Assembly: GCA_035631615.1 (NCBI GenBank)
Contig: DASQIK010000066.1
Location: 15,852-79,851 of the forward strand
Length of the DNA stretch: 64,000 nt
Origin: Candidatus Dormiibacterota bacterium
Lineage (GTDB): Bacteria > Chloroflexota > Limnocylindria > Limnocylindrales > CSP1-4
Direction of reading: 5' to 3'
Shown here: piece after piece, positions 5,235 to 41,384 of the stretch
Layout: each line of letters opens with the position of its first letter
Position numbering within the stretch: the stretch's first letter is position 1
Translations under genes and position numbers: made by a program
Notes under the pieces: generated by a model
Told to the model about the DNA's origin: nothing
What the model saw: only the letters and a program-made list of their open reading frames with translations
Database searches by the model: none

Positions 5235-5240
5235 AATCGA

Positions 5241-23319: not shown

Positions 23320-26034
23320 ATGGCTACGATCGCCGGCATGACCCGGCGCTCGGCCCCGAGCTATCGCGGCCTGCTCGCCGCGGCGGGGGCGCTGGTCGTC
23401 GTCGCCGCGGCGTGGTCGACAGCGCTGCTCATCGCACCCCGGCCATCCACGAGCCCGGCGACGCCCGCCGGCGCGGCTGCCGGCCCGCACATCGCCCCGA
23501 CGCCGGGTTCGTCGGTTCCGTTCGATGTCCGGCAGCTGCCCCAGCTCTCGGCGAAGAGCGGTCACGACCGGGACAAGCTCCGCGAGAAGCATGCCCCGGA
23601 CGCCCATCCTGTCGGCACGGCCGCGTTCGCGCGGATCGGCTCGGGGCTCGGCGGGCCATCGGTCCCCGCGCCACCGACCGATACCTCGTTCGAGGGCCTC
23701 GCCTACAGCGACACATGTGGTCCGTCGCAATGCGGCGACGGGCATCCGCCGGACACCAACGGTGACGTCGGGCCGACGTACTACATCGAGGTCGTCAACA
23801 CCGCGATCGGCATCTTCGACAAGTCGACCGGCAGTCGCGTGGCGGCGTTCACGTTCGACGCGTTCATGAGCCGGGGCAGCTTCGGGAACCTGTGCGACAC
23901 CGACAACTTCGGGGATCCGGTCGTCCTGTACGACACGTTCCAGGACCGCTGGTTCATCACCGATTTCGCGTTCCAGGTCGATCGCTCGGGCAACATCGTC
24001 AACCCGCCCGGTTCGTTCCAGTGCATCGCGGTCTCGAAGTCGGGCGATCCCGTCTCGGGCGGCTGGAACTACTACTCGATCCACCTCACGGACGGCCTTC
24101 AGGACTATCCGAAATTCGGAATCTGGCCGGACGGCATCTACATGTCGGCCAACATGTTCGACTACTCGGCGGCGGGGAGCTACCACAACGTGCGCGTGTG
24201 GGCGCTCGACAAGGCCAGGATGTACGCGGGCCAGGCGGCGTCGGTGATCACGTTCGATGCGCCGGCGACCGTCGTCCAGGGCGGGACCCTGTGCGACGTG
24301 TTCACGCTCCTGCCGAGCGACGCGCGTGCGCAGACAGGGACGCCTCCAGCCGGCCGCCCGAACCTGTTCGCGTCGACCTGGTGCCCGTCCAACGGCGTCC
24401 TGGTCTGGAAGTTCCACGTCGACTGGACGACGCCCGGGAACTCGACGTTCACGGGTCCGACGACGTCCTCGACCGGCTCCTCATGGTCCCCCGGTCCGGA
24501 CCTCGTGCCGGCGAAGAACGGCAATGACGTCGACACCCTCGGCTCGCGGACGATGGCCCAGAACCACTACACCAACCTCAACGGCGTGGAATCGCTCTGG
24601 GACTCGCACACCGTCGCCGGCGCCGACGGCACGCAGGCCGCGGTGCGCTGGTACCAGGTGCCGGTCACCGGCGGCACGGTCGGCAGCGCGCTCCAGGCAT
24701 CGACGTTCAACCCCGACACGGACAATCGGTTCATGCCCAGCGTTGCCGTGGATCGGCTGGGCGACATGGCGATCGGCTACAGCGTCGCCAGCGCCACGCT
24801 GTACCCCTCGATCCGGTACGCAGGCCGCCTTGCCGGCGATGCCGCCAATGCGATCACCCAGACAGAGGCGACGCTCATCGCCGGCACCGGGGCCCAGACC
24901 GGCAGCTGCGGCGGCGGGCCATGCGAGCGCTGGGGCGACTACTCGGCGATGACGCTCGACCCGAACGGATGCTCGTTCTGGTACGCCAACGAGTACTACA
25001 CCGACCTCAGCCTCAACGACCACACCCGGATCGGCTCGTTCCGGTTTGCGGGCTGCACGGACGTCCAGCCGTACTCGCTCGCCCCGGCGGTCGCGAGCGC
25101 CTCGGCCGGGCAGGGCAAGGTCGCGAGCTACACGATCAACATCACCCGCTCGAGCTTCGCGGGAACGATCGCGTTCAGCGCCTCGGGGCTGCCGCCCGGC
25201 GCTAGCGCGACATTCAGTCCGAACCCATCGAGCGGCTCCTCGGCAGCCCTCAGCGTCACGACATCGAACTGCGGCACGGTCACCCCGCGGGGCACGTACG
25301 CGATCACGGTCAAGGGCACGTCGGGCGGGCTGACGCAGTCGACATCCGTCTCGCTGACGGTGACCAACAGTGCTCCGACGCTGTCGACGCCGGTCGCCAC
25401 GCTCTACGGTGGCACGACGCTGGGGTCGACCACCGCCCGAGTGACGACGTCGTGGTCCGCGTGTGACGCGGACGGGATCAAGTCGTACGTCCTGCAGCGC
25501 CAGGTCAATGGCGGCGCGTGGGCAGGTGTCTCGCTCCCGACCGCGACCACGACGGCGATCAACCAGGGGTTGACCTTCGGCACGACCTACCGCTTCCGGG
25601 TCGTGGCGACGGACAAGACCGGAGTCGCGACCTCCTACGTGTACGGCTCCTCGTTCAAGCCGATCGTCAGCGACAACACGAGCACGGCGATCAGGTACGC
25701 GGGCTCCTGGGGCACGGCGACGTCCGGCTCGTACTACGGGGGCCACGCTCGCGACGCATCCGCCGCCGGGGCGTCAGCGACGTTCTGGTTCACTGGGTCG
25801 AGCGTCGCCTGGATCACGTACAAGAGCACGGGCCGCGGCTCGGCCACGATCTACGTCGACGGGGTGCTCCGAGCGACCGTGAGCCTGTACTCGACCACGA
25901 CCACCGCGAAGGCACAGGTCTACGCGTTCAACTGGGCGACCAGCGGCTCACACTCGATCAGGATCGTCGTCGCCGGCACCGCGGGCCATCCGCGCGTCGA
26001 CGTGGACGCGTTCCTGCGGCTTGCCCCGGGCTGA
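23320..26034 (+). CDS. large secreted protein: N-terminal signal/anchor, propeller-like core, C-terminal Ig/FN3-like and sugar-binding-like domains (function unknown)
   Basis: 904 aa. Signal-like LLAAAGALVVVAAAW. Conserved-looking PPDTNGDVGPTYYIEVVN and RWGDYSAMTLDP. Ends with a repetitive beta-rich C-terminus. No catalytic call possible by eye. Confidence 0.8.
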   Translation: MATIAGMTRRSAPSYRGLLAAAGALVVVAAAWSTALLIAPRPSTSPATPAGAAAGPHIAPTPGSSVPFDVRQLPQLSAKSGHDRDKLREKHAPDAHPVGTAAFARIGSGLGGPSVPAPPTDTSFEGLAYSDTCGPSQCGDGHPPDTNGDVGPTYYIEVVNTAIGIFDKSTGSRVAAFTFDAFMSRGSFGNLCDTDNFGDPVVLYDTFQDRWFITDFAFQVDRSGNIVNPPGSFQCIAVSKSGDPVSGGWNYYSIHLTDGLQDYPKFGIWPDGIYMSANMFDYSAAGSYHNVRVWALDKARMYAGQAASVITFDAPATVVQGGTLCDVFTLLPSDARAQTGTPPAGRPNLFASTWCPSNGVLVWKFHVDWTTPGNSTFTGPTTSSTGSSWSPGPDLVPAKNGNDVDTLGSRTMAQNHYTNLNGVESLWDSHTVAGADGTQAAVRWYQVPVTGGTVGSALQASTFNPDTDNRFMPSVAVDRLGDMAIGYSVASATLYPSIRYAGRLAGDAANAITQTEATLIAGTGAQTGSCGGGPCERWGDYSAMTLDPNGCSFWYANEYYTDLSLNDHTRIGSFRFAGCTDVQPYSLAPAVASASAGQGKVASYTINITRSSFAGTIAFSASGLPPGASATFSPNPSSGSSAALSVTTSNCGTVTPRGTYAITVKGTSGGLTQSTSVSLTVTNSAPTLSTPVATLYGGTTLGSTTARVTTSWSACDADGIKSYVLQRQVNGGAWAGVSLPTATTTAINQGLTFGTTYRFRVVATDKTGVATSYVYGSSFKPIVSDNTSTAIRYAGSWGTATSGSYYGGHARDASAAGASATFWFTGSSVAWITYKSTGRGSATIYVDGVLRATVSLYSTTTTAKAQVYAFNWATSGSHSIRIVVAGTAGHPRVDVDAFLRLAPG

Positions 26035-26165
26035 CGCGGCGCTCGGCGAGCCCGCCGCCTAGATGTGATTCACAGCAGCGTTGTTGACAAACGAGCGCCT
26101 CTGGTCGCGCCAGATGGCAAGACGCCGATGGCGGCTTTGGTCAGCAACGTGAGTGGGAATCACAC

Positions 26166-26396
26166 CTAGATCGGCTCGCGGCTGCCGCTCGGGAACGCGC
26201 AGTATTGCCCGATCGACTGCGGGTCGGACAGGATCACGACCTGACCGCCGCGATCAACGCACGCCTGGCGAGCCTTCTGCACGCGCCCGTTGAAGATCGC
26301 GACGCCGAGCACGATCGCGGCGGCGATCACGATCACGGTCAGGATCGCGGAACGGTACGTCGCCCACATCGCGACCGATGGTAGGGCCACGCACAC
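26166..26396 (-). CDS. small hypothetical membrane protein
   Basis: 76 aa with one TM (AILTVIVIAAAIVLGVAIF) and two Cys in the tail. Start may be the internal MWATY. Confidence 0.45.
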   Translation of the reverse strand: MCVALPSVAMWATYRSAILTVIVIAAAIVLGVAIFNGRVQKARQACVDRGGQVVILSDPQSIGQYCAFPSGSREPI

Positions 26397-26432
26397 CGCC
26401 GAACCGCACCCTGGCGGATTCCCTGGCTTCCG

Positions 26433-27773
26433 TCATTGGACGCGGGCTCGGGTCTGGGAGTATTGCCCGCCCTGCCCCGGCCAACGGATCGTCCAAACCG
26501 AAACTGGCTCGACGGGCACCAGGCAGGGATCGACGCCTCCGATGCATGCGCTCCTCGCTGGCCAATCGTGCGTATTCAACGGCCGGATCCAGAAGTCGGC
26601 GACGACACCGACCACAAGGAGCGCCGCGAGGGCCACGGCTGCGGCCCGGCGCCGGTGCGCGATTGCCAGGACCACGACGGCGCCGACGATCAGGCCAGGA
26701 ACGTAGAAGTAGTGCTCTCCGGCCACCGGCCCGAGGAGCGTGTGGTACGTGTTGATCGACCCCTCGAGGACAGCAGCCACCGACGCCACCCATACGTAGC
26801 CAAGCACGAACAGCCACCGGCGCGGCAGGTCTCGAACGGCGAAGACCAGCAATCCTGCGATCACCACGGCGACGACGGCGATGACCGGCGGCGTCGCAAT
26901 CAGCGTCGTGATCCGCGCGCCGAGGATCGGCTCCACGACGGCGCGGACGGCGACCACGCCGGTCGCGTCGTACAGCGTTCCGCCTCCGTGTGGCTCCCGT
27001 GTCGAGGTCAACAGCAAGGTCAGCTGGACCGCTGCCGCGATCGTGGTGATCGACGCCGTGGCGACTCGCCACCGGCTCCGGTTGGCGACTGCGGCGGCGA
27101 CGTGGAGCGGAGCGATGAACAAGCTGGCAAGGCCACTCATTGCGGCGAGTGCCAACGCGCAGAGCTCGATGACGCGGCGCTGACGCGAGCTCGGTTCTGG
27201 CGCGATCGCGGCCGCGATCAGGAACACGTCGAGGAACCACTGCGCATACGTCATCGAACCGATCAGCTCGGCCGTGCCCGGAGCGACGATGACGAGGGCC
27301 GCGAGCGCGAGCCGCGTCCGCTGGTTGGGAATGATCGCGGCGAGGCGGCCGCTCGCGAGATAGCACGCAACGGCGACCGCGATTGCGATCGCCGCGAGGT
27401 TCGCCACGAGTGGCGCGAACTGGATCGGCGGGACGCGCTCGAGAAGCGCGATCAGGCGCGGAACGACGTGCAGATAGCCCTCGTAGGGCCGCAGCACGCC
27501 GTCGAGCGGCGATCCGAAGTAGGTACCAAGGAAGAAGGTCTGCCCGTCCTCGACTCGGAACTCCGGTGTCAAGAGGATCTGCGGCCGGCGCGCCACTAGC
27601 AGCACGGCCCCGGCAATGGCAACCGCGACCAGATTGGCGGGACCCTGCCATCGATCAGTTGCCGTCCGTAGCGCGCTGGCATCGGGAGGTATGGGAGGCG
27701 CCTGCTGCGACATGGACCTCGACGCCTCCAACGAATCCGCCAGATTACGGGCCGCAATCATCGCGCGATGCAA
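26433..27773 (-). CDS. polytopic integral membrane protein (function unknown)
   Basis: 446 aa with 9 or more hydrophobic segments and a C-terminal Cys pair (CIGGVDPC). Likely start is the ATG at 27711-27713 (MSQQAPP). Confidence 0.7.
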   Translation of the reverse strand: MHRAMIAARNLADSLEASRSMSQQAPPIPPDASALRTATDRWQGPANLVAVAIAGAVLLVARRPQILLTPEFRVEDGQTFFLGTYFGSPLDGVLRPYEGYLHVVPRLIALLERVPPIQFAPLVANLAAIAIAVAVACYLASGRLAAIIPNQRTRLALAALVIVAPGTAELIGSMTYAQWFLDVFLIAAAIAPEPSSRQRRVIELCALALAAMSGLASLFIAPLHVAAAVANRSRWRVATASITTIAAAVQLTLLLTSTREPHGGGTLYDATGVVAVRAVVEPILGARITTLIATPPVIAVVAVVIAGLLVFAVRDLPRRWLFVLGYVWVASVAAVLEGSINTYHTLLGPVAGEHYFYVPGLIVGAVVVLAIAHRRRAAAVALAALLVVGVVADFWIRPLNTHDWPARSACIGGVDPCLVPVEPVSVWTIRWPGQGGQYSQTRARVQ

Positions 27774-27971: not shown

Positions 27972-28019
27972 GTGGTGAGCCCGCAGGGACTTGAACCCTG
28001 AACCCGCTGATTAAGAGTC
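27972..28019. repeat. distal att site: 48-bp perfect copy of the 3' part of tRNA-Lys
   Basis: 27972-28019 is 48/48 identical to 41309-41356 by hand alignment. It covers the tRNA from the anticodon stem to CCA plus 1 nt, and no 5' half is present here. Confidence 0.95.
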
Positions 28020-28109: not shown

Positions 28110-28135
28110 CGTTGCTACCAGCCGTTGCTACCAGC
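28110..28135 (+). repeat. tandem 13-bp repeat CGTTGCTACCAGC x2 (putative integrase arm-type site)
   Basis: Read directly. The core GTTGCTACC recurs twice at 41228-41249 in the same orientation, just inside the other island end. Confidence 0.8.
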
Positions 28136-28178: not shown

Positions 28179-29639
28179 CTACCGATTCATGGCCTCGCGG
28201 AACGGCTCGTGCAGGAAATCTCTCAGCGGTATCGGCTTGTCCAGGGCTCTGGGAATTCCGAGCTCGATGGCGCGCCGTCGGATCAACGTTCGCCACTCGC
28301 GACGTCGCCGTGGGTCGACCATCGCTTCGTCGACGTCCAGATCAGGATCACGGTCGAACCGCCAAGGTCCCGACCCGCCCGCTTCGAGGAGCAGACGGGC
28401 GAGGATCGCCCGTCTGAGAAGATCGCGCCACCGATCGAACAGGACGGCCACGCGGTCGTCGACCATGACCTGATCGAGTCCTCGCGCGGCGAAGAGATCC
28501 TCCCAGCGCTTCGGTGGGATGACCTCGCCGTGGGCGACCTTCCCGCGAATCTTGAGCAGCTCACCGACGTCCTCGAAGATCGCCGAGGGCGGGTCGCCGG
28601 CGCGCGCGAGGAGCTGAGCCGCTCGAGTCTTGATTCTGAGCGTGATCTCCTCGCGCTCACCGGTCGAGAGCGCGGCCTCGAGGCCGATGGCGATGTCGAT
28701 GACGACGTCCGCCCAGGCAGCGGTCCGGTGCGATCGGTTGAACCGGCTCAGGGCGACGATGATCGCGGGCGGGATCTTCACCTTCGAGCGATCGTCGAGC
28801 TCGCAGATGCGCGTTGCGATCGCATCGATCCCGGCGAGTTCCTCAGCATTGACGACACCTACGCGGAGCCAGGATGTAGCCTGCTCGGGATCCACGGCAA
28901 CTGCGTTCGGCCCGCCGGTGTGGACCATCTTCGGCTGTCCATAAACCTCGAAGGGCTCGACGATCGACCCCGCCGTAACAAGGCGGAGCGCCGTCGAACC
29001 GTGCGCGAGGTGTGGCCGAACATCGAACGCGACGATCCAGCCATCGCGGCCCGATCCCTCGGCGACGAGGAACGCACTCGGCTCCGTCGAACCCCAGCTC
29101 ACGTGCGCGTCGTCGCTCGCGCTGGCGCCCTCAGGGATCTCCGGTGAGATCGTCTCCCGGATGCCGTGGACGTGGCGGATCCGAGCGTCGTGGAGCTCCT
29201 GACCGTCGACCGCACTCGCGTCCAAGTCAAGGAGGAGGCGCATCACGCGAACCGGCTGCTCAGGGTGCTCGAGGTGGTCTAAGAGCTCGTCGACCTGCGG
29301 GCCCGGGCCCGACACCACCTCGCCGTACCGGAGTGTCTCGACCGTGGCGGCCGCAACGACACCACGAACGAGGGCCTCGACGTATTCCTCCGCGCGGCCG
29401 AACCCGAGCCTCCATCGGCCGGGGATGAGTTCGTTGAGTTCGTTTGCCAGGTCATCCTCTGCCGCCCCGCGGCCGCGCAGCCGCCAAAGCCGTCGGCGCT
29501 CGATCCAGGGGTTGTCGCGGCCAGGCGCGGGGATTAGGCCGGCGGCCTCGAGACGGGGCAGCTCGGCCTTCAGGTACCGGATCGCAGCGTCGCGGATTCG
29601 CTCACGAGTCACCGCATCGATCGGGAAGGATGTCGCCAC
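28179..29639 (-). CDS. HEPN-motif protein (ApeA/Abi-like architecture: unknown N-terminal domain plus C-terminal HEPN-like helical domain)
   Basis: 486 aa. The C-terminal third is helical, with ALSRFNRSH...IGLEAAL...LLKIRGKVAHGE containing R-x4-H (R365-H370, nt 28530-28547). First gene inside the distal att site. Confidence 0.6.
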   Translation of the reverse strand: MATSFPIDAVTRERIRDAAIRYLKAELPRLEAAGLIPAPGRDNPWIERRRLWRLRGRGAAEDDLANELNELIPGRWRLGFGRAEEYVEALVRGVVAAATVETLRYGEVVSGPGPQVDELLDHLEHPEQPVRVMRLLLDLDASAVDGQELHDARIRHVHGIRETISPEIPEGASASDDAHVSWGSTEPSAFLVAEGSGRDGWIVAFDVRPHLAHGSTALRLVTAGSIVEPFEVYGQPKMVHTGGPNAVAVDPEQATSWLRVGVVNAEELAGIDAIATRICELDDRSKVKIPPAIIVALSRFNRSHRTAAWADVVIDIAIGLEAALSTGEREEITLRIKTRAAQLLARAGDPPSAIFEDVGELLKIRGKVAHGEVIPPKRWEDLFAARGLDQVMVDDRVAVLFDRWRDLLRRAILARLLLEAGGSGPWRFDRDPDLDVDEAMVDPRRRREWRTLIRRRAIELGIPRALDKPIPLRDFLHEPFREAMNR

Positions 29640-30132
29640 CGAATCGCTCTAGATCAGGAGCGTCGCGCTTGGCATCTCGGTCAAGAGTAGAGCGCCTCCG
29701 TCCGCTGACTGCATGTCTCGCTAGGGTAGATTCCGGAACTCGACCGGTAGGAGGGATCCGTGGCGGCCTCGGTGTGCTCCTCAGCACGGTCAGCCTGCTC
29801 GAAGTGTGGCCATGACGACAGGCTCGAGCTCACCTTCGTGGTGTCGACATGACGACCACGGTCCCGGTCGAGGTCCGGCACTACCTCGACGTCGGCGCCT
29901 GGTCATCGCGCTCGCGCTCTTCGGCACGGCGCTCACCGCCCGCCGGCGCGTCATCGTGGTGCCGTACCGCCCGACGATCCAGGTGCCGGTCCCGTGATCG
30001 GGCGGTGATGACCCCGGGCGCGGTCACGCGAGCTGGTCGTTTCGCGCGAAACGAGATCGTCGTCGACCCGCGGCGCCGGGGCGGCTGGATGGTATCGGCG
30101 GCCGTTTATGTGGCGATCACTGGTGGGGCCGC

Positions 30133-30921
30133 ATGGATCCGCTGACGGCGCTGCTTGGCACGGTGGGCGTCGCCACAGTGGGTGTAGTCGCGACCCTCAT
30201 TCTGAAGAAGGCCGGGTTCGACGAGGTCGATATCGGGGTCAACCCGCCGCGATTCAAGATCTCCCGCAAGAAGCCTGAGCCGTCCCACGGCGGGTCGCCC
30301 CTACCGAGTGTCGAGCCGCCGGCGCCGACCGGCTCAGAGATCCAGCGTGAGCGAGACCAGCTGCGAGAGGCGATCTTCGCGTATAGCGAGGCCGCGCAGG
30401 CGCTCGAGGCCCTGCTCGGATGCAAGGCAGTTGAGCGCGACCGATACGCTCGGGAGTGGTTCGACAGCCTGTGCAACGGCCTCGAGACCGCACTTAGGAC
30501 CTCAACGGAGGAGCGCTATCGAGCGAGCGTCTGGGCCAGTCGCGCCGATCCCGAGAACTTCGATGCAGTCGGCCTTGGCAAGTTCGATCCTCACGACGTC
30601 CGCTACCAGAAGCTGAAACGGACGGGCACCATCGGCGGCGAGGCGTTCGCCGTCACGAGCGGCGAGAAATACTGCCCCGACATCCACGATCCGGACTGCA
30701 ATTGGGTGCCACGGAGCACGAAGAAATCGAAGTACCGAAGCCTGTTCGCGGTGGCGCTCGTCGACCTCGAAAACGAAACGCGACGCTGGGGCGTACTGAC
30801 GATCGATTGCAACATCAAGGACGGGTTCTCAAAACTCGACCAACAGGTCGCGCGTCATTTCGGCGAGCTAGCGTCGCTGGGCGAGCTGGTCTGGCGTCGC
30901 AAGGAAGCACCGCCGGTCTAA
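30133..30921 (+). CDS. membrane-anchored protein with C-terminal GAF-like domain
   Basis: 262 aa. N-terminal TM (LLGTVGVATVGVVATLIL), a helical linker, then a GAF-like pattern: RASVWASRADPENFDAVGLG...GTIGGEAF...YRSLFAVALVD...RWGVLTIDC...FSKLD. Domain call by eye. Confidence 0.6.
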   Translation: MDPLTALLGTVGVATVGVVATLILKKAGFDEVDIGVNPPRFKISRKKPEPSHGGSPLPSVEPPAPTGSEIQRERDQLREAIFAYSEAAQALEALLGCKAVERDRYAREWFDSLCNGLETALRTSTEERYRASVWASRADPENFDAVGLGKFDPHDVRYQKLKRTGTIGGEAFAVTSGEKYCPDIHDPDCNWVPRSTKKSKYRSLFAVALVDLENETRRWGVLTIDCNIKDGFSKLDQQVARHFGELASLGELVWRRKEAPPV

Positions 30922-31024
30922 CGTGCCCGCGAAACCGGCTAGGCGTTACGCCGGATACGGCGATATAGTCCAACCGGACGTCGATCACGGAACGACGATC
31001 CAGTCGGGGAGATTCGAGGAGGAC

Positions 31025-31204
31025 ATGCTGGAGCGAAATGGGTCCCACCGTCGGGGGGCGGAGGTGAACCCAACGGTCGGCAGTCCGCTTGGCAAGTTGA
31101 TCAAGCGGGAAATCGACAGTCGGGAATACGTCCGCCAGGTCAACGAGAAGAGGGAGCGCCACGGCCTCCCCCCGATCAGACCGCAGACCGCCGACGGGCA
31201 ATAG
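31025..31204 (+). CDS. small basic hypothetical protein (59 aa)
   Basis: ATG at 31025 is preceded by AGGAGG (GAGGAGGAC-ATG). Third-position GC is high. It is the in-frame tail of ORF 30923..31204. A hairpin plus CTTCTTC follows at about 31231-31262. Confidence 0.55.
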   Translation: MLERNGSHRRGAEVNPTVGSPLGKLIKREIDSREYVRQVNEKRERHGLPPIRPQTADGQ

Positions 31205-31263
31205 TTCACCCGCACCGCACTCATACGAAGGCCCCGCTAGGTCCCGCCAGGCGGGGCTTCTTC

Positions 31264-32562
31264 ATGCCCGGGAAAGCCCGAGGCCAGGCGGGTTCGTGCG
31301 CGTCCGCGGATCCAACTCGGGGGCCATCGGCGGCCGCCAGGTTGCCGACCGCGTGGCGGTGCGCGTTGCGGCTGCTCGTCGCGCCCGGGCACGTTCCGCG
31401 CGGAAACGAGATCGACCTCCCGCGGACCCGGAGCGATCCGAGGGTGGGCGAGGCGAGTCACGTACGGCTCACCGGGTGGGTCGGCTTCTCCACTATCGCG
31501 GTCGCCGCCGCTGGCCTGATCCTCGTCGCCGGACGGGGAATGGGCTTCTACAACGACGAGTGGTGGTTCATCCTCGGCCGCTCGATCTCGGACCCGGTGA
31601 CATGGTTCGCCGCGCACAACGAGCATTGGGTGACGCTCCACGTCATCGTCTACCTCGGCCTCCACCAGCTAGTCGGCGAGAGCTCGTATCTCCCGTACCT
31701 GGCCGCCCTCATGGCCGTCCACGTCTCGGCGGCTGCCGCGCTGTTCATCCTCGTCCGGCGGATCCGCGACGGCTGGGCGCCGCTTGCCGTCACGTCGATC
31801 TTCCTCGTCCTCGGATCGGGCTTCGAAAACCTGTTCTGGGGTTTCCAGATGGGGATGGTCGGCGGCCTCAGCCTCGGTCTGTGGGCACTCGTCGCCGTGC
31901 CACGGCGGCCGATCGTCGCGGCGGTGCTGCTGCTCGCGGGGGTCGCGACGTCGGGCTCCGTCCTTTTCGGGGTCGCGGCGGCGTGCGTGTACCTGCTGCT
32001 GACCCGTCCACGCTGGGCCGCGATCACGCTGCTGCCTGTTGCCGCCTATGGCGTGTGGTGGGTGGTCATCGGCGCTGCCACGGCACGCAACGAGCACCTC
32101 CCGTTCAATCTCGGCTGGACGCTTGGGTATCCCGGCAACGCGCTCGGTGCCTGGATGGGTGGTGTGACCGGCCTCGGCTTCGCGGGCGGCCTCGCAGTCC
32201 TGCTCGTCACGCCATACCTGCTGTATCGCTCGCGGCCCTTGAACCCGCTCGTCCTGGCGTCGATCGCGGCGATCACCGCCGAGGTCGCGGTGCTCACGTT
32301 GAGCCGGTCGGCGATCAACTCACCGTGGGCGCCCCGGTACGTCTACCTGTGCGCGCCGTGGGCGCTGATCGTCGCGTCGGCGATGCGGCTTCCGACGCTG
32401 GTCGCCCGCCCGGCGTTCGCTTGGGCATTGGCGGTCAACCTGCTGCTCGTCGTGTACTGGGGCCACCAGTGGCCGATCGAGCGAGGCAATCCGCCGGTTA
32501 CCTGCCAGCCCGCGGCAGTCGCGGGCGCCAGCGTGTGCGAGACGAATTTCGCCGCTCGCTAG
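31264..32562 (+). CDS. polytopic integral membrane protein (function unknown; island cargo)
   Basis: 432-aa ORF with about 10 hydrophobic segments and a C-terminal Cys pair (VTCQPAAVAGASVC). Start uncertain: ATG 31264, or a GTG near 31444. Confidence 0.65.
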   Translation: MPGKARGQAGSCASADPTRGPSAAARLPTAWRCALRLLVAPGHVPRGNEIDLPRTRSDPRVGEASHVRLTGWVGFSTIAVAAAGLILVAGRGMGFYNDEWWFILGRSISDPVTWFAAHNEHWVTLHVIVYLGLHQLVGESSYLPYLAALMAVHVSAAAALFILVRRIRDGWAPLAVTSIFLVLGSGFENLFWGFQMGMVGGLSLGLWALVAVPRRPIVAAVLLLAGVATSGSVLFGVAAACVYLLLTRPRWAAITLLPVAAYGVWWVVIGAATARNEHLPFNLGWTLGYPGNALGAWMGGVTGLGFAGGLAVLLVTPYLLYRSRPLNPLVLASIAAITAEVAVLTLSRSAINSPWAPRYVYLCAPWALIVASAMRLPTLVARPAFAWALAVNLLLVVYWGHQWPIERGNPPVTCQPAAVAGASVCETNFAAR

Positions 32563-32682: not shown

Positions 32683-33339
32683 TCAGGCGCCGGCCAACGA
32701 GGCCCAGAACTCGGGCGAGTACGACGTGGACGACAGAATGTTGAGCGCCCCGCCAGATGTCTGGACGGCCAATGCCTGGAAATACTGGCCGGCGGTCGGT
32801 TCCCATTCAGTCGAGCACGACAACCGCGTGACGTCGCCGTTGACTGCCCCTCGAACGTCCGACACGATCGCCACGCCATTGCACAGGATGTACAGGTAGC
32901 GGATGCCCGTGGCGTTCGACGCGAACTCGACGCTGGCACCGACGCGCCACAGGCCGCCCATGCCGGTCGGGATGGTGAGCCGGTCCGTGTTGGAGCTCGT
33001 GCTGTGGATCGAGTCGGAGTCGTAGCGGTTCGTGTTGAACGTGAGCATCGTTCCGAAGTCGCCGGAGTTCCGCGACAGGTTCGCGTTGTTGTAGGCGCGG
33101 GCGCCATGGAGCGGCGTGTAGCCCCACGACGGCACCGTGCCGTTGCTCACGTAGACCGTGCCGGCGGCTCCGGCCGCGATGTTGCCCCACGTCGCCCACG
33201 AGTTGCCGGCGTAGTTCGACTTGTAGAGCAGATTGTGCGTGGAGCACGAGTAGAGCGAGCCGTCCGGCACGGTGTTCGCGGCTGGTCGGTTCGCGTGGGT
33301 GTCGAGCCCGAGATGGATCCCGGCAACGGTGGCAGTCAT
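32683..33339 (-). CDS. tail-fibre / receptor-binding-like protein (C1q/TNF-like jelly-roll suspected)
   Basis: 218 aa, Asn/Ser/Thr/Gly-rich and beta-type. Segments FDSDSIHS..DRLTIPTGMGGLWRVGASVEF...IRYLYILCNGV resemble C1q-like fibre tips. GGGAGA sits 5 nt upstream of the ATG. Assignment tentative. Confidence 0.45.
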   Translation of the reverse strand: MTATVAGIHLGLDTHANRPAANTVPDGSLYSCSTHNLLYKSNYAGNSWATWGNIAAGAAGTVYVSNGTVPSWGYTPLHGARAYNNANLSRNSGDFGTMLTFNTNRYDSDSIHSTSSNTDRLTIPTGMGGLWRVGASVEFASNATGIRYLYILCNGVAIVSDVRGAVNGDVTRLSCSTEWEPTAGQYFQALAVQTSGGALNILSSTSYSPEFWASLAGA

Positions 33340-34207: not shown

Positions 34208-34855
34208 TCATCGGAACTCGAGCCGAGGCCGACCGGCGCCGCTGAATCGGACGGCACCGCGCGGAGGCGCGAACGGGAACGTTGCCGGGAGGACGACCGG
34301 ACGACGGACTGGAGCCGCACGCGCCGGGGTTCGCGCTTTCGAGGCGGCGTTCCGGACCGCGTCCTGGAGCAGCTGACGCTCGCGCGACAGCTGCTCGAGC
34401 TCCCGGGCCCTAGCCCGCGAAGCCCGGAGCTGCTCCTCGCGCTCCATGTCCTCGATCCATCGTGGCCACGGCCCCGATTCCCCGACCATCCTCCGGGCAT
34501 ACGTCTCAGCGTCTCGTTCCGCAGCGAGACGCTGCATGGCAAACCTTCCGGTCGCTCGCTGCCAGACGTGACGAAGCTCGTGCGCGAGCGTGCTCCGGTC
34601 CGCGCGCGGATGGACGAGGTAGATGGCGCCGTCGGCCTCCCAGCCCAGAACCGGATCCTGGCGTGGATAGCGGCGCTGACCGATCGCCAGGCGAATGTCC
34701 GGCGCGAGCGACCGATCGGCCAGGTCGACGACCCATCGGACCGGTGGGATCGCGCGCAAGCCGAGATCGAGAGCGATCGCACGAATGATCCCGTCGACCA
34801 GGCGGTGCGAGGCAGCCGGGATGGCCCGATTGGCAAGGTCGGCGTACGTCGTCAT
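34208..34855 (-). CDS. hypothetical protein with HExxH metallopeptidase-like motif
   Basis: ORF 34208..35131 trimmed to the ATG at 34853-34855, an ATGA overlap with the upstream gene. Has LAHELRHVWQ (H-E-x-x-H) and a helical Arg/Glu-rich C-terminal half. Confidence 0.6.
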   Translation of the reverse strand: MTTYADLANRAIPAASHRLVDGIIRAIALDLGLRAIPPVRWVVDLADRSLAPDIRLAIGQRRYPRQDPVLGWEADGAIYLVHPRADRSTLAHELRHVWQRATGRFAMQRLAAERDAETYARRMVGESGPWPRWIEDMEREEQLRASRARARELEQLSRERQLLQDAVRNAASKARTPARAAPVRRPVVLPATFPFAPPRGAVRFSGAGRPRLEFR

Positions 34856-35646
34856 GGCCCGACCCACCCCTCTGAGGCCTCGATATCGGCGATGAATCGC
34901 TGTTGCGCAGTCGCTGGCTCGTCGAGCGGCACGAGGCGCCTCTGGCCGGTGGCCGTCGCCGTGGGCGCCGGGCTCGTGGGCCGCGGCTTCCCGTCTGGAT
35001 CCGCGATCCACTCCCCGGATGCGGTTTCGCGGTGCCAGCGCGCCAGGCGGCCCTCGTTCACGTCCCCTAGGGCCTGTTGCTGGCCGGGCAGCGCGAGCTC
35101 GTGCCAATTGGCCCGCGTCAGTCCACCGCACGATGGATGGCTCACGCCTCGAGGGCTGGTCTCGGGCGAGCCGCCAAACTGCTGCTCGGCGTGCGACCAG
35201 ATCGTGAAGATCTCGTCGGAGACCTTCGACGCCTCCATCAGGAGCTCGTCGAGGCGAGCGATCGCCGCGCGATAGGGAGCGTGAAGGGCGCGCCTGGCGA
35301 CCACCTTCGCCTCGTCCGTGATGATGGCGAGCGCGGCCTCGACCTTGCGTTGCTCGTCGGCCAGCGCGGCTGCTCGCGCCCTGGCCTCGGCGAGCTTGGC
35401 GTCTGCCGCGGCGACGGCCGCGCGCGCCTTGTCGAGCGCGGCTGCGTCCTTCCGGACGCCGGCGAGTAGATCGACCTCGATCGGCTCGACGGTCGCGGTC
35501 GCGTCGGCTAGGCGCGCTTCGGCTTCGCTGACGGCTGGGCCGACTCGTCGACGGTCGCGATCGAGCTCGTCACGCCTGCGTTCGAGCTCGGCGAGGCGCG
35601 GATCCGCGTGCCAGTCCGGGAGATCGATCTTTGTTCGGGTTGCCAT
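34852..35646 (-). CDS. hypothetical coiled-coil protein
   Basis: 264 aa. AAGGAG lies 9 nt upstream of the ATG at 35646. The N-terminal half is Ala/Glu/Arg-rich and helical, and the C-terminal half is of mixed composition. Confidence 0.65.
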   Translation of the reverse strand: MATRTKIDLPDWHADPRLAELERRRDELDRDRRRVGPAVSEAEARLADATATVEPIEVDLLAGVRKDAAALDKARAAVAAADAKLAEARARAAALADEQRKVEAALAIITDEAKVVARRALHAPYRAAIARLDELLMEASKVSDEIFTIWSHAEQQFGGSPETSPRGVSHPSCGGLTRANWHELALPGQQQALGDVNEGRLARWHRETASGEWIADPDGKPRPTSPAPTATATGQRRLVPLDEPATAQQRFIADIEASEGWVGP

Positions 35647-35736: not shown

Positions 35737-37041
35737 TCACGCCGTGCCCCACACCGCGGCCGGCTGCTCAGCGTCGAGCTCGAGGATCGGATTGCCAGGC
35801 GCCTCGAACAGCCCGGCCGGCTCGATCTCATCTGCGCGCTCGGGTTCGGCCGCGAAGATGTGCGCCATCCGATCGCCGACCGTCGCGGCCTCGCGCGTGT
35901 GTCCCGCTTCACTCCACTCACTCCCCGAGTGACCAGAGTTATCGGGGACAGTACGCGCGCGCGAGACGTAGCCCTTCGCCGATCGCATGACCGCGCCGGT
36001 GTCGACGAGCTTGCTGACGAGGTGCTGAACGGACGTCCGCTCGAGGCCGGTCATGTCCGCGATCGCCTTCGGGAACAGCGGACCGTGCGATTCGATCACT
36101 CGGAACACTTGCATACGCTCGAACGAGGCTTCGGGCAGGGCGGCCGGCGCGGCACGCCAGAGTCCGTCGACGAATCGGACCGGCACCTCGGCCTCGGCGA
36201 CGTCGCGGCCGGTCACGTCGAGCGTCCCGAACTCCTCGTGGCGCTTGCGCCGGACGACGATGACCGTGTCTGCCGAGCCGGCGATGCCGTAGGTGCCCGA
36301 GACGCTGGCCAGGAAGTCGTCGCTCGATTGCTTGCGAGCGTGGTGGACGATGACCAGGGCGGTCGGTCGATCGCGGAACAGCGCCTGGAGGCGGCCGAGG
36401 TCCTCGACGTCGACCTGGTAGGCGTTGCGCCGGCTGTCGCCGTGCGGGCGGACCTTGCCGAGCGTGTCGATTGCCACGACGGCCGCGTCGGCGTGAGCGT
36501 CGAGCCACGCGGCGATCGATTCCTCGAGCCCGGCGCCGATCATCGGCGCCGACCAGCGCACCTCGAGCCGGCCCTTCGGCATCGTGCGACCGGCGAGGGC
36601 GCCGCGGAGCCGCGCCTGGCCGCGACGGTGCCCGTCCTCGAGCGCGAGGTACAGGCTGGATCCGGAGGCGACGCGACGGCCGAGAAGCTCGCCGCCCAGA
36701 GCGACCTCGACGCACAGCTGATACACGAGGGTCGATTTGCCGATCTTCGGCTCGGCGGCGATGACCGTCGTGCCCTCGTACACGACGTCCGGAACGACCG
36801 CCCGAAGCGGTGCGAGCTCGAGCGCCAGGAGGTCGACGGCGTCGATGCCGCCCGCATCCCGCCGGAGCCGCTCAGCCCGTGACTCGGCGAGCTCGGTGGC
36901 AGTCGGTTGAGCGTCCCACCACGCCGGCGATCCGAGAACCGGCGCGACGGCCTCGGCTTCGCCCTCCGGATCCCGCGTCGCGAGCTCCACGCGCTCGTCG
37001 ATCGCTCGGTCACCGAGCCACGCGATCCGCTCTTCGGTCAC
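35737..37041 (-). CDS. AAA_25/RepA-like RecA-fold ATPase (replication/helicase-loader type of integrative elements) with C-terminal winged-helix
   Basis: ORF 35737..37122 trimmed to the GTG at 37039-37041, a GTGA overlap. Walker A AAEPKIGKST, Walker B VVAIDTLG, then LVIVHHARK. C-terminal FRVIESHGPLFPKAIADMTGLERTSVQHLVSKL. Confidence 0.75.
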   Translation of the reverse strand: MTEERIAWLGDRAIDERVELATRDPEGEAEAVAPVLGSPAWWDAQPTATELAESRAERLRRDAGGIDAVDLLALELAPLRAVVPDVVYEGTTVIAAEPKIGKSTLVYQLCVEVALGGELLGRRVASGSSLYLALEDGHRRGQARLRGALAGRTMPKGRLEVRWSAPMIGAGLEESIAAWLDAHADAAVVAIDTLGKVRPHGDSRRNAYQVDVEDLGRLQALFRDRPTALVIVHHARKQSSDDFLASVSGTYGIAGSADTVIVVRRKRHEEFGTLDVTGRDVAEAEVPVRFVDGLWRAAPAALPEASFERMQVFRVIESHGPLFPKAIADMTGLERTSVQHLVSKLVDTGAVMRSAKGYVSRARTVPDNSGHSGSEWSEAGHTREAATVGDRMAHIFAAEPERADEIEPAGLFEAPGNPILELDAEQPAAVWGTA

Positions 37042-37268
37042 GGCTGGAGCTCGAGCATCGCGAGCTGGGCCTCGAGGGCGGTCAGACGAGCGGCGGCGTC
37101 TGCGGCCGCTCGTGCCGCCCACTCGATCTGCCGCTCGAGGCGCCGACGCTGGCGCTCGGGATCAACCGCCCGGCCGGAGGTCGGCTCGCGACCGGGCGGC
37201 GACGAACGGACCCCGGCGGCCCATGCGCAAGCCGCCGAAGTGCGGCGCGGTGTGCGCTCAGTGCTCAT
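37038..37268 (-). CDS. small coiled-coil hypothetical protein
   Basis: 76 aa with 4-nt overlaps at both ends (ATGA and GTGA). The C-terminal half is helical (RRRLERQIEWAARAAADAAARLTALEAQLAMLE). Confidence 0.5.
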   Translation of the reverse strand: MSTERTPRRTSAACAWAAGVRSSPPGREPTSGRAVDPERQRRRLERQIEWAARAAADAAARLTALEAQLAMLELQP

Positions 37269-37516
37269 CGGGCCTTGGCCGCCATCTCGGCGATCGCCGA
37301 GCTCGGGACAACGCGCCGGCGGCCAATCGTCAGCGTCCGGAGCTCGCCCCGTTCGATCAGCTCGTACAGCGTCGATCGAGCGATGCCGCCGAGCGCCTGG
37401 CGCGCCTCGTCGACGTCCAGGAGCCGTTCAGGCTGGGCGGGCGCCTCGTTCCGCGAGGCAACCTCGGCGCGGAGCGCGTCGACGAGCTCGGCGACAGCCG
37501 CCTCGAGGCGCGTCAC
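37265..37516 (-). CDS. xis: excisionase-family (MerR-like) HTH DNA-binding protein
   Basis: LLDVDEARQALGGIARSTLYELIERGELRTLTIGRRRVVPSSAI is the classic Xis/AlpA-type pattern. GTG start overlaps the RHH stop (GTGA). Confidence 0.75.
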   Translation of the reverse strand: MTRLEAAVAELVDALRAEVASRNEAPAQPERLLDVDEARQALGGIARSTLYELIERGELRTLTIGRRRVVPSSAIAEMAAKAR

Positions 37517-38348: not shown

Positions 38349-38725
38349 CGTCGATCCTTGCCTTCGGCCCACCGCACCGCGCCGCGGCTGACGCCGAGCT
38401 GTGTCGCGATCGCCTGCTCGCTGCTGGGCTGGCCGGCCTCGACGAGACGTTGTCTGGCGGCGGCGACGGCCTCCGAGTTGGTTGCGGCGGGCGCGCCCGG
38501 TCGCGTTGGGCGGGGTTCCGGATGGTGCGCCTGGCGGCGTAGTGCGGCGATCCGCAACAACCAGCCGCGCTGGCCGGCGACGGACTTGTCGATCCCGCCG
38601 ACGGACATGAGGTCGTGCAGGACCTCCTTGTCCGTGTATCCCTGATCCAGGTCCCATTTGATCAGATCGTCGACTGGCGAAGGAAACCCGACGGGGTCCA
38701 TAGCGCGGCTGGCGAGGTCGCTCAC
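38345..38725 (-). CDS. hypothetical protein with C-terminal HTH-like segment
   Basis: 126 aa with a 4-nt overlap with the integrase stop. C-terminal SSEQAIATQLGVSRGAVRWAEG resembles a helix-turn-helix. Confidence 0.55.
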   Translation of the reverse strand: MSDLASRAMDPVGFPSPVDDLIKWDLDQGYTDKEVLHDLMSVGGIDKSVAGQRGWLLRIAALRRQAHHPEPRPTRPGAPAATNSEAVAAARQRLVEAGQPSSEQAIATQLGVSRGAVRWAEGKDRR

Positions 38726-39924
38726 GAGTCACCGCCCAGGGCGCGATCCATCGCGTCGGCCGCATCGCGGCGTTGTGCCGCCACGACGCCGGCGTAGCGG
38801 TCCGCGGTAACGGTGATCGTCGAATGACCGAGCGACTCGCTCACGACCTTCAACGGGACCCCGGCTGCCAGGAGCGCCGTCGCAGCGCTGTGCCGGAGTC
38901 CGTGGAAGGCAATCGAGGGGAGCCTGGCGGCCTCGAGCAGCCGGTGAAACGCGTGGTTGACGTCGTGGCCCTGCAACGGCCGGCCGCCGGCGTCCGTGAA
39001 CACGAGCCCGCGCGTGTCCTGCCAGGCAGAGCCGAACCGGTCCTTGGCGGCCGTTTGGAGCTCCGCCTGGCGCTCGAGGGCGGCGACCACGGCCGCGGGC
39101 AGGTTGATCGTGCGCCTGCTGTGCGCCGTCTTGGGCTCGGCGAAGTCCCAGCTCTGGACGAGCTCGCCGTCGGTGCGCTGCCAGGCGCGCGCCAGTGAGC
39201 GCGAGACCGTGAGGGTCCGAGCCTCGAGATCGACGTCGGTCCAGTACAGGCCGAGGAGCTCGCCCTGGCGCAGCCCGGTGGCCGCGGCGACCGTGACGAG
39301 CGGGCCGAGGGGATGGACCTTGGCGGCCATCAGGAGCCGGCGCAGCTGGTCCGTGGTCAGGTAGTCGCGACCGGCCTCGAGCGACCGCGTAGGGACGCGC
39401 GGCGGGCGCGCCAGGGCCGCGACGTTGCGATGGACCCGACCATCGCGCACGGCATCCGCCAAGGCCCGCCGCAGGACCGCCCGGGCGAGCGCAGCGGTCC
39501 GTGGCGACCGGCCCGACTCGATCAGGGCTGCGGTCATGTGCTCGACGTCGGCCGGCGTCATCTTGGCCAGGTCGAGTCGCCCGAGCGGCGGCGTGAGGTA
39601 TCGCCTGGTCGTCGACTCGTACTGGCGCCAGGTCGCCGCGCGGATCCGCTGCCGCGAGGCGACCAACCATTCCGCGAGGAACGTGTCGACGGTGCCGGGC
39701 GGCGCCGGCGCGGTGCCCTTGTCGAGCTCGTCGCGGATCTTCGTGAGCTCCTTGCGGATCTCCTTCCGAGTCCGCCCGGACACGACGCGCCGCCGGCGAT
39801 CGCCGTGGGCGTCGGTCCACGCGATCGCGCCGCGCAGCCGGCCGTCGGCCGTCTCGTAGATCGATCCTTCGCCGTTGCCTCGCCGTGGCGCCTTCTCGCC
39901 GGCGGGCCGTTTGGCGCGGGTCAT
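38722..39924 (-). CDS. int: tyrosine recombinase / phage-type integrase
   Basis: 400 aa. Catalytic signature ATGLRQGE (Arg), HGLRHSAAT (H-x-x-R), LGHSTITVTADRYAGV (His, Tyr). N-terminal SAM-like domain. Confidence 0.95.
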   Translation of the reverse strand: MTRAKRPAGEKAPRRGNGEGSIYETADGRLRGAIAWTDAHGDRRRRVVSGRTRKEIRKELTKIRDELDKGTAPAPPGTVDTFLAEWLVASRQRIRAATWRQYESTTRRYLTPPLGRLDLAKMTPADVEHMTAALIESGRSPRTAALARAVLRRALADAVRDGRVHRNVAALARPPRVPTRSLEAGRDYLTTDQLRRLLMAAKVHPLGPLVTVAAATGLRQGELLGLYWTDVDLEARTLTVSRSLARAWQRTDGELVQSWDFAEPKTAHSRRTINLPAAVVAALERQAELQTAAKDRFGSAWQDTRGLVFTDAGGRPLQGHDVNHAFHRLLEAARLPSIAFHGLRHSAATALLAAGVPLKVVSESLGHSTITVTADRYAGVVAAQRRDAADAMDRALGGDS

Positions 39925-40469
39925 GACGCACCGCCGTTCCAGAGCCGGCGCACGCGGCCGCCGAGCTCGGCGTCAGGGATCGCGACGTCGTCGACGAGCC
40001 TGGCGACTGCCTCGAGGCGTGCCAGGCGCGCCTTCGCCTCGCGTTCGCGTTCGGCTCGAGCTGCCGCCTCGGCATCGCGCTCAAGGGCGCTGTCGCATCG
40101 TCGGCAGGCCTCGGAGGGAGCTCCGGGTGCCACGAGCAACCGCGGGCGATTCCCCGCGCGGCGCGGCCACCCGCTCGCCGGCTCGCCGACGTATGCGCTC
40201 ACCGCCTCGCGGAGCGCCCAGCCCGGTCGGTAGTGGCTGCAGCGGAGAGAGATCGAGCCGCTGCGACCGTTCCACCCGGTGACCAGGTGCCAGGGACCGA
40301 TCGGCTCGGTGACGCCATCGAGGTCGGTCCGCGCGGCACGGATCCACGAGCCCGCCGGGGGCAGGCCTGCAGGCGCCGGGTCAAGATCCTGGAGATCCGA
40401 GAGCCGGTCGCTGGCCAGCTCATTCAGCTCGGCGAGCTGTTTCTCGAGCTCGCGCCACGGCTCGCTCAT
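39921..40469 (-). CDS. hypothetical Cys-motif protein, paralogue B
   Basis: ORF 39921..40907 trimmed to the ATG at 40467-40469 (ATGA overlap). Shares PPAGSWIR, GPWH..TGW, LRC...GW and ACRRC with the gene upstream. Coiled-coil ends. Confidence 0.6.
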   Translation of the reverse strand: MSEPWRELEKQLAELNELASDRLSDLQDLDPAPAGLPPAGSWIRAARTDLDGVTEPIGPWHLVTGWNGRSGSISLRCSHYRPGWALREAVSAYVGEPASGWPRRAGNRPRLLVAPGAPSEACRRCDSALERDAEAAARAEREREAKARLARLEAVARLVDDVAIPDAELGGRVRRLWNGGAS

Positions 40470-41131
40470 GACACACCGCCGGCAACCAAGCGAAGCCGCG
40501 GTCGCGGATGGCACCGTCGGCAGGCGTCGACTGTGGGGAGCTCGTCGATCGCGACGTAGTCGTGCGAGGTTTCGCCCGTCGAGAAGTTCTCGTCGCGGAG
40601 CGTCGCCGACCAGCCGCACTTCATGCGGCCGCGGATCCAGTGCGTCCGACGATCGACCTCGGACCAATCGCCCGAGAAGATGTGCCAGCCGCCGTCCCAT
40701 CTGGGTTCTGCGAGAGGGCTCGTCCGGCGACTGGACCGGCGCTGGCCGGGTCGCGGGACGTAGCGCGACCGGATCCAGAGCCCAGCCTGGGGCGGGGCGA
40801 ACGGCAGCGCGTCTGGCGTTGCGAGCTCGTTGGCGATCGCCCCCGCCAGACCGCTCGCGACACCGTACAGGGCGGAGGTCGCCGCGGCGGCCATGATCCG
40901 CTTGCATGCGTCGATATCGAGGTCGGCGCCGAGCTCGTCCAGAACAAGCTCCGCCGGCTCAACGACGGTCCTCGCCAACTCCCGGGCGAGCGTGAGCAGC
41001 TGCGTTGGCGGAGGATCATTGGGCTTCGCCGTCGCGAGGCCCCACCGGGTGATGCCGAGGCGCTCGAGCGCGCCCCAGACCTCCTCGCGGGCCGCATCGT
41101 GACGGCCGGACCATCCCATAGACTGAGCCAT
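40466..41131 (-). CDS. hypothetical Cys-motif protein, paralogue A
   Basis: 221 aa. C-terminal PPQAGLWIR...GGWHIFSGDW...MKCGWSATLRDE...DACRRCH parallels paralogue B. First gene inside the tRNA-proximal att site. Confidence 0.6.
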   Translation of the reverse strand: MAQSMGWSGRHDAAREEVWGALERLGITRWGLATAKPNDPPPTQLLTLARELARTVVEPAELVLDELGADLDIDACKRIMAAAATSALYGVASGLAGAIANELATPDALPFAPPQAGLWIRSRYVPRPGQRRSSRRTSPLAEPRWDGGWHIFSGDWSEVDRRTHWIRGRMKCGWSATLRDENFSTGETSHDYVAIDELPTVDACRRCHPRPRLRLVAGGVS

Positions 41132-41249: not shown

Positions 41250-41260
41250 ACCGGGCATGA

Positions 41261-41308: not shown

Positions 41309-41384
<76 letters not shown>

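Follow-up and report, generated by a model that had tools for sequence, protein, structure and literature searches.

The stretch of DNA considered here, which we call the window, comprises 64,000 nucleotides of contig DASQIK010000066.1 (assembly GCA_035631615.1, Candidatus Dormiibacterota bacterium), and our subject is the 4.4 kb between 28179 and 32562, at one end of an integrated element. Four genes lie there, here called A, B, C, and D. A first-pass annotation of the same sequence had described them as an HEPN-motif protein facing, across a divergent spacer of ~490 bp, a membrane-anchored GAF-like protein, a small basic protein, and a polytopic membrane protein, and had implied that the four might form a single anti-phage system.

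28179–29639, minus strand: gene A, 486 residues (frame analysis by GC at the third codon position; homologues)
29640–30132, no strand: divergent A/B spacer, 493 bp (coordinates)
30133–30921, plus strand: gene B, 262 residues, one N-terminal transmembrane helix at residues 6–24 (GC at the third codon position; hydropathy)
31025–31204, plus strand: gene C, 59 residues, isoelectric point 10.4 (GAGGAGG just 5' of the ATG; 59-residue orthologue in locus L007)
31227–31264, plus strand: GC-rich hairpin GCCCCGC...GCGGGGC followed by TTCTTC, candidate terminator of B–C (folds in the window)
31264–32562, plus strand: gene D, maximal open reading frame of 432 residues, ~9–10 hydrophobic segments (hydropathy)
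31444–32562, plus strand: gene D, likely 372-residue form from the GTG at 31444 (recorded length; start of conservation)

GC content at the third codon position backs all four reading frames as coding, and the genes stand where the annotation had put them, with a measured spacer of 493 bp and with C indeed a basic protein preceded by a strong ribosome-binding site. Two of the earlier descriptions need amendment. D is a multi-pass membrane protein, as described, but 372 residues are likelier than 432; it probably starts at the GTG at 31444, because the window copy is recorded as 372 residues and conservation with its homologues begins at residue 69. The ATG at 31264 falls within the conserved terminator-like tail of the B–C cassette described below. 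The region is also low in GC, as had been noticed (0.673 versus 0.707 for the window, whose GC is thus ~71%; the lowest 3% of 4.4-kb windows), but this property is not specific to the cargo: the trough extends over the chromosomal flank at 24–28 kb, outside the island, and D alone has a value of 0.70. The low-GC left flank (23320–27773) encodes a 904-residue secreted protein and a 446-residue polytopic membrane protein without a family.

The spacer DNA and its open reading frames find no match in any related locus (tblastn and blastn versus the fetched loci), and a simple scan for promoters and terminators in the region was uninformative. One spacer reading frame of 63 residues (29806–29997, plus strand) has coding-like GC, with position 3 above position 2, and an Arg-flanked hydrophobic stretch; it has a homologue in none of the fetched loci.

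In the annotation these genes were placed where an integrated element carries its accessory cargo, next to the distal attachment (att) site, and the borders of the element agree with this placement. A perfect 48-nt direct repeat (27972–28019 and 41309–41356, 100% identical in a repeat search of the window) encloses an island of 13.3 kb, and the copy at 41309–41356 is the 3' part of a tRNA-Lys(CTT) gene, the sole tRNA in the window (ARAGORN; Rfam tRNA, 70 bits). An Rfam scan of the region gave nothing besides this tRNA. Between the att copies lie an integrase and a small terminase subunit (TerS), together with other features that bear on the nature of the element, including a putative replication protein and an excisionase-like helix-turn-helix (HTH) protein.

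27972–28019, no strand: distal att, 48-nt copy of the tRNA-Lys 3' part (repeat search)
28111–28135, plus strand: tandem motif GTTGCTACCAGCC GTTGCTACCAGC, probable integrase arm-type site (motif search)
32683–33339, minus strand: 218-residue protein resembling the C terminus of virion structural proteins, first gene beyond the cargo (phrog_13989, 2e-13; tblastn to three phage records)
33701–34111, minus strand: TerS (phrog_1496, 1.2e-21)
35737–37122, minus strand: AAA_25 ATPase fused to a winged HTH, putative replication protein (Pfam AAA_25, 1.2e-20; MarR_2, 2e-5)
37265–37516: 83-residue protein with an excisionase-like (AlpA-like) HTH sequence (gene map)
38722–39924, minus strand: tyrosine integrase (Pfam Phage_integrase, 1.4e-25)
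41241–41252, plus strand: third arm-like copy GTTGCTACCACC, just inside the tRNA-side att (search with 1 mismatch)
41310–41384, minus strand: tRNA-Lys(CTT), integration target, its 3' part being the proximal att at 41309–41356 (ARAGORN, Rfam, repeat)

This gene content (integrase, regulatory HTH, replication gene, and terS, without a full virion module) is that of satellites resembling the phage-inducible chromosomal islands (PICIs). Because the integrase, HTH, AAA_25, and TerS genes are present and the island reading frames scanned (a subset of all of them) include none recognized as capsid, portal, or large terminase, the island looks like a PICI-type phage satellite; we infer satellite behavior from gene content. 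The 218-residue protein matches only the C-terminal ~110 residues of virion structural proteins of ~600 residues (phrog_13989); among phages it is matched best by an archaeal-virus record and by Gordonia phage Erutan.

Do the four genes belong together? We fetched loci with flanks of up to 10 kb for A (19 records, some of them duplicate places of one contig), B (4), and D (5), and in these loci A, B–C, and D never occur together (tblastn of A–D). The sole association seen is that of C with B, which it follows in every B locus. The annotation had itself named homologues that never co-occur as the finding that would speak against joint action, and this is what the loci show; the implied four-gene unit is not borne out. 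Because no fetched A, B–C, or D locus contains the others, the three are independent of one another, and B–C is set further apart from D because a conserved hairpin lies between C and D. The four genes are therefore three unrelated accessory modules (A; B–C; D), probably acquired separately, and not one defense system. In agreement with the annotation, which had recognized no named defense system, PADLOC has no match for any of A–D. Adjacency within a cargo slot is no evidence of a system; here, co-occurrence analysis splits an apparent unit of four genes into three modules.

The DNA next to the distal att describes the slot itself. The arm motif is present in three copies in the window versus 0.28 expected, and its tandem arrangement has the general form GTTGCTRCCA-N3-GTTGCTRCCA (GTTGCTGCCA-N3-GTTGCTGCCA). 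Two other B–C loci, L008 and L009/L010, show the order 3' fragment of a tRNA-Lys-like gene, ~85 nt, tandem motif, B–C, with the motif at 154–176 in L008, 213–237 in L009, and 114–138 in L010. B–C directly abuts the motif in L008 and L009; in the window, A and the spacer intervene. Because the window otherwise shares the layout of L008 and L009, A appears to have been inserted into this slot separately.

The tandem motif also occurs in 16 further metagenome contigs (L027–L042), in most of them ~100–130 nt inside 3' fragments of various tRNAs, and A, B, C, and D are encoded in none of these 16 loci. A search of the metagenome collection with the combined att and arm-motif pattern gave no match. 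Slot content varies, because the 16 loci encode none of A–D, and the tandem motif looks like the mark of a widespread family of tRNA-integrating elements with variable att-distal cargo. In one of these contigs (L040; 37–723, minus strand), the first slot gene beside the motif encodes a 229-residue protein, unrelated to A, whose string DHRNEHIAH looks like a canonical HEPN Rx4H motif.

Judged by its sequence matches, A belongs to a large unnamed family. A word-indexed search found 24 relatives, and an exhaustive hidden Markov model (HMM) search with the alignment of these 24 returned 191 clusters at 50% identity for E ≤ 1e-30, 731 for 1e-10, and 6110 for 1e-3, the best 150 matches being mostly full-length (~480–520 residues). 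Its members in species-representative genomes come mostly from metagenome-assembled genomes (MAGs) of Limnocylindria and other Chloroflexota; members L014–L026 also include one Acidimicrobiia MAG and one alphaproteobacterial MAG. From this distribution, the host of the window may be something other than an actinobacterium, in spite of its 71% GC and an MMPL gene. A has no match in Pfam, PADLOC, PHROGs, or NCBIfam.

An alignment of 96 sequences, 18–53% identical to A, contains seven invariant columns (R259, R365, H370, R409, R410, R415, and W426), and E321, G371, D402, R403, and D406 are conserved in at least 90% of the sequences. R365 and H370 are thus present in 96 of 96 sequences, and G371 and E321 in 95 of 96 each. 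Position 366 is Ser in 92 of 96 and Gly in A itself, and the family consensus reads R-S-x-x-V-H-G. An Rx4H string alone means little, as A contains four versus 1.4 expected by composition; of these four, only R365–H370 is conserved. The family as a whole accordingly possesses the conserved Rx4-6H motif that characterizes the HEPN superfamily.

28380–28772, minus strand: HEPN-like C-terminal domain of A, residues ~290–420 (conservation; AlphaFold2 model)
28677–28679, minus strand: codon of E321 (coordinates checked)
28545–28547, minus strand: codon of R365 (coordinates checked)
28530–28532, minus strand: codon of H370 (coordinates checked)

The AlphaFold2 model of A (predicted local distance difference test score, pLDDT, 87; predicted template-modeling score, pTM, 0.88) is helical at its N terminus and α/β in the middle, and ends in an all-helical HEPN-like domain. 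Its helix 351–369 ends at the motif, with H370–G371 in the next loop; the motif helix is separated from the E321 helix by an extra helix (333–344), and a long helix (393–419) follows downstream. The published HEPN layout likewise has the motif at a helix end, the His in the following loop, and an extra helix upstream (PMC3710099), and A shows this layout in its predicted model. E321, although conserved in 95 of 96 sequences, is not in an Ex3[KR] context. Thus, of the earlier description of A as an HEPN-motif protein, the motif stands, being invariant in the family, but membership of HEPN is unbacked by Pfam, PDB-sequence, or Foldseek searches. Because no profile or fold search joins A to a known HEPN protein, we use the term HEPN-like for its C-terminal domain and do not count it among the proven members.

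The genomic contexts of A provide a second line of evidence. Its homologues are single genes without a recurrent partner, in highly variable positions. One is directly 3' of AbiEi/AbiEii, another has an Eco57I-type methylase, a P4 cII-like gene, and HTH-M78 pairs around it, and a third (~4619–6244, in L021/L022) comes just after a ThsB-type TIR gene (PADLOC 1e-61; upstream, 77–4302). Further neighbors include NaeI with Dcm (C5 methylase) and two integrases. The notion that the end of the element is an anti-phage hotspot gains from these observations, as A homologues often adjoin known defense genes (AbiE, prokaryotic Argonaute (pAgo)/TIR, and restriction-modification), and the contexts support a role for A in conflict. 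The L021/L022 neighbor set also has strong pAgo class I and SIR2-APAZ-type matches and may be a short-pAgo defense locus. A is probably a stand-alone HEPN-like abortive-infection RNase with an architecture similar to that of ApeA, a protein to which we return below.

B has only 5 homologues among 5.8e9 proteins, and none in GTDB genomes or IMG/VR. An N-terminal transmembrane helix is followed by a Pro-rich linker and a GAF-like domain, and alignment of the homologues reveals three invariant Cys residues (C181, C189, and C226) plus many other invariant residues. In a Foldseek search of the PDB, nearly all of the top ~50 matches of B are GAF domains (probability up to 1.0, TM score on the target (TMt) 0.5–0.62, E ~1e-3), among them those of PtsP, CodY, free methionine-sulfoxide reductase, and phytochromes; the best is 3ci6_B (E 1.4e-3, probability 1.0, TMt 0.62). 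The GAF fold is made up of a β-sheet packed on N- and C-terminal helices, and a membrane-anchored GAF-like B, as the annotation had it, agrees with the single transmembrane helix and the fold search. Structure and HMM searches, which that annotation had proposed as a check, gave a GAF-like fold for B but no HEPN fold for A, and no family HMM for any of A–D.

C is 74–77% identical over its conserved 59-residue part (residues 32–93 of a 93-residue maximal open reading frame) in L008–L010, and 54% identical over the whole reading frame in L007 (tblastn). B is followed by C in L007, L008, L009/L010, and the window, with adjacency and order both conserved. The hairpin downstream of C is conserved along with B–C in L007 (z −3.4) and L008 (z −2.1) and is a probable terminator of the cassette; a simple terminator scan did not call it. 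The pair is cargo and not core, because the 16 further arm-motif contigs encode none of A–D. We favor, at low confidence, a membrane-associated exclusion or abortive module. Two other candidate roles were rejected: that of C as an excisionase, which gives no HTH signal and for which the gene at 37265–37516 is the better candidate, and that of B–C as the core pair of the element family, other arm-motif loci being without it.

The D family has 39 homologues. No Pfam domain was found in the 20 members scanned, no relative was found among PDB profiles, and comparisons of the D profile with the neighboring GT87 and with the 446-residue left-flank membrane protein were negative (hhalign). Right after the first transmembrane segment lies a motif F95-x2-D98-E-W; F95, D98, and E120-H121 are invariant, and W100 is conserved in at least 90%. 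An acidic first-loop motif after the first transmembrane segment is a hallmark of GT-C enzymes, and the motif of D may correspond to it. Three of the five D-homologue loci (L011, L012, and L044) are glycan-synthesis clusters with an adjacent GT2 of ~250 residues, composed of GT2, Acyl_transf_3, and GT2; of GT87, GT2, PIG-L, and UDP-glucose dehydrogenase; and of PIG-L, GT2, and an epimerase. D is likely an envelope-glycan-modifying membrane enzyme, a surface-modifying cargo of the lysogenic-conversion type, and on the best reading is functionally unrelated to A and B–C. In the window, GT2-like genes at ~14.3–14.7 kb and 20.9–21.3 kb match the GT2 genes that adjoin D's closest homologue in L011 (tblastx); the island may adjoin a host envelope-glycan region.

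How well could other explanations account for these observations? In the reading implied by the annotation, A–D are one new defense system, in which the GAF-like sensor and the membrane protein control the HEPN effector through a shared divergent promoter region. The genes are adjacent within a low-GC cargo region, A and B diverge around the 493-bp spacer, and none of the four has an assigned function. Yet the 19 A, 4 B–C, and 5 D loci contain no co-occurrence, B–C abuts the arm motif without A in L008 and L009, a conserved terminator-like hairpin separates C from D, and the A/B spacer is not conserved, and we regard this reading as very improbable. A different question is whether A is an immune nuclease at all. 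It could be an ordinary passenger here, a conserved protein of the cell or of mobile elements that acts, for example, in RNA processing or regulation and uses its R/H pair for binding or other chemistry. Part of our own evidence speaks against an immune RNase and, as set out further on, against the roles proposed for B–C and D. The 96 relatives have no consistent Pfam or PADLOC match and no HEPN Pfam; searches of A against PDB sequences and profiles gave nothing meaningful; the Foldseek search with its model gave best E values of 0.88 (PDB) and 0.3 (BFVD) and no HEPN match; IMG/VR, INPHARED phages, and PLSDB plasmids contain no homologue; where N, D, or H is usual after the motif Arg, A has Gly and the family Ser; housekeeping genes surround several of the homologues; and the family, large as it is, is concentrated in few phyla, mostly in Limnocylindria MAGs. 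These points notwithstanding, a non-immune A seems to us unlikely, given that the gene is always single and highly variable in position, that its homologues are repeatedly found beside AbiE, pAgo/TIR, and restriction-modification genes and integrases, that it sits here in the cargo slot of a satellite, and that its family combines an invariant R-S-x-x-V-H-G at a helix end with a conserved Glu farther upstream, much as in the HEPN signature.

The pair B–C might instead serve the life cycle of the element itself, as a membrane-anchored sensor with a small DNA-binding or recombination-directionality-like factor that controls induction or excision. Such a role would explain the closeness of the pair to the att arm sites, as three independent contigs have it next to the arm motif and the window has it there too, with A inserted between, and C is small and basic like many excision cofactors. 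Against the module that we favor for B–C stand its absence from INPHARED phages, the moderate confidence of the AlphaFold2 model of B (pLDDT 62.5), and the searches in which B matches no GAF HMM in Pfam or NCBIfam and no PDB profile. As for a life-cycle role, 16 other arm-motif loci are without B–C, L007 has the pair in another arrangement near a different integrase, the island already encodes the 83-residue excisionase-like HTH protein, C has no HTH match, and the layout, with its own terminator, is moron-like; we consider a life-cycle role improbable. It is similarly not probable, in our judgment, that D has nothing to do with glycans and is instead a transporter or a structural membrane protein, a chromosomal-type gene captured by the island. 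For this reading, Pfam, PDB-profile, and hhalign searches detect no link between D and any glycosyltransferase family, and two of the five homologue loci (L013 and L043) lack glycan genes. The glycan role that we propose is also weakened in that the island has no GT2 partner for D and INPHARED phages contain no homologue. What counts against a transporter is that the other three loci are glycan clusters with an adjacent GT2 of ~250 residues and that the acidic F-x2-D-E-W motif is invariant or nearly so directly after the first transmembrane segment.

We consider it moderately probable that a satellite-like element of 13.3 kb sits in tRNA-Lys and that the 4.4 kb are its att-distal slot for variable accessory genes, holding three separately acquired modules with the roles proposed for A, B–C, and D. 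We infer all of the biochemical activities of A–D, and any phage phenotype. A would be a self-contained sensor-effector, whose N-terminal and middle domains, for which no relatives are known, would keep the HEPN-like domain inactive as long as there is no infection. On infection, the R365-x4-H370 motifs of two protomers would come together in a metal-independent RNase site, and cleavage of tRNA, rRNA, or phage RNA would halt phage growth, as it does for ApeA and HepS. B would be held by its one transmembrane anchor with its Cys-bearing GAF-like domain in the cytoplasm, because Lys-Lys follows the helix, and the basic 59-residue C would be its partner in a two-component membrane exclusion or abortive module whose GAF-like domain senses a ligand or a phage product; this role of B–C is the weakest step of the scheme. 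D may alter a surface glycan, and hence phage adsorption, by using a lipid-linked sugar made by the host, as GtrC does.

A bolder version of this proposal is that A is the founding member of an unnamed family (at least 190 clusters at 50% identity, mostly from Chloroflexota and other soil lineages) of stand-alone immune RNases of ~490 residues, with an HEPN-like domain too divergent for HMM and fold searches and with N-terminal domains that form a new infection sensor, and that B–C is, independently, a new two-gene, membrane-associated exclusion module with a GAF-like sensor in the att-distal slot of widespread tRNA-integrating satellites marked by the GTTGCTACCA tandem motif. We hold this version to be doubtful and offer it tentatively. 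If A is an active HEPN-type abortive-infection RNase, then PADLOC and Pfam have missed a sizeable single-gene defense family from poorly studied soil lineages, with a sensor region without known relatives. The slot, flagged by a tandem motif near tRNA fragments, could be a search handle for accessory and defense genes in uncultured high-GC bacteria. In general, three features of the locus are of interest: a family with an invariant HEPN-type motif in conflict contexts, a rare cassette of a GAF-like and a small protein, and a DNA motif that marks a slot.

Several other features of the island may be recorded here. A 221-residue gene without a family match (40466–41131, minus strand) lies between the integrase and the tRNA-side att, so that the integrase is not the terminal gene, and may indicate a second cargo position. 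Two reading frames overlap, at 34208–35131 and 34852–35646 (both minus strand); the former has an HExxH-like AHELRH string and weak matches to eCIS_core and DUF6782 metallopeptidases, and the latter encodes a coiled-coil protein. The 18-nt repeat TCGCTCACGAGTCACCGC occurs at 29598–29615, 38718–38735 (100%), and 40462–40479 (83%), that is, in the first codons of A, where the start of a 126-residue gene meets the integrase stop, and where the 221-residue gene ends; it may be due to chance.

Each part of the locus can be compared with a known system. GtrC is a phage-borne, Gtr-type serotype-converting glycosyltransferase (PMC3688519). D resembles it as a polytopic membrane protein on a temperate element, with relatives that adjoin a small GT2 of GtrB size, but no homology is demonstrated between the two, the island is without a gtrA or gtrB partner, and the organism is high in GC and not enterobacterial. 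For B, the best structural matches are the GAF domains of PtsP (3ci6) and CodY (2gx5) and free methionine-R-sulfoxide reductase (fRMsr; 4mmn/3ksg), and B has in common with GAF sensors a GVL-x-ID-like strand motif. fRMsr is a Cys-containing GAF enzyme, and B has three invariant Cys of its own. B is unlike the GAF sensors in being membrane-anchored, paired with a 59-residue protein, and without a GAF HMM.

P4-like satellites and P2-like phages have defense hotspots with interchangeable genes at a fixed position (PMC9122126). The slot is similar in that related elements hold different content at the same position. It differs in belonging to another element family and host lineage, in being att-distal and beside a tandem arm-like motif, and in that none of its genes is a recognized defense system; the satellite behavior of the element, too, is putative.

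A invites two comparisons. ApeA reportedly comes from the screen of Gao et al. in 2020. It is a single protein with an N-terminal region without assigned function and a C-terminal HEPN domain, whose one Rx4H motif must dimerize (bioRxiv 10.64898/2026.03.20.713152). Like ApeA, A is one protein without a partner gene, with a C-terminal Rx4H domain and variable defense neighborhoods. Unlike ApeA, to which it has no detectable sequence relationship (the ApeA and Apea-like HEPN models of PADLOC and Pfam are unmatched by A and its 96 relatives), A has 486 rather than ~600 residues, carries R-[SG]-x-x-V-H-G where ApeA has RNKITH, and comes mainly from Chloroflexota-type MAGs. The prophage Gifsy-1 encodes HepS, an abortive-infection protein with a solo HEPN domain, which was recognized by structure and motif and not by HMM (PMC13043305). 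Both HepS and A are HEPN-motif accessory genes of temperate elements that act alone, A presumably so, but HepS and its relatives have fewer than 250 residues and consist of the HEPN domain only, whereas A has ~290 extra N-terminal residues and no detected homology to them. ApeA and HepS, therefore, are not relatives of A but its analogues.

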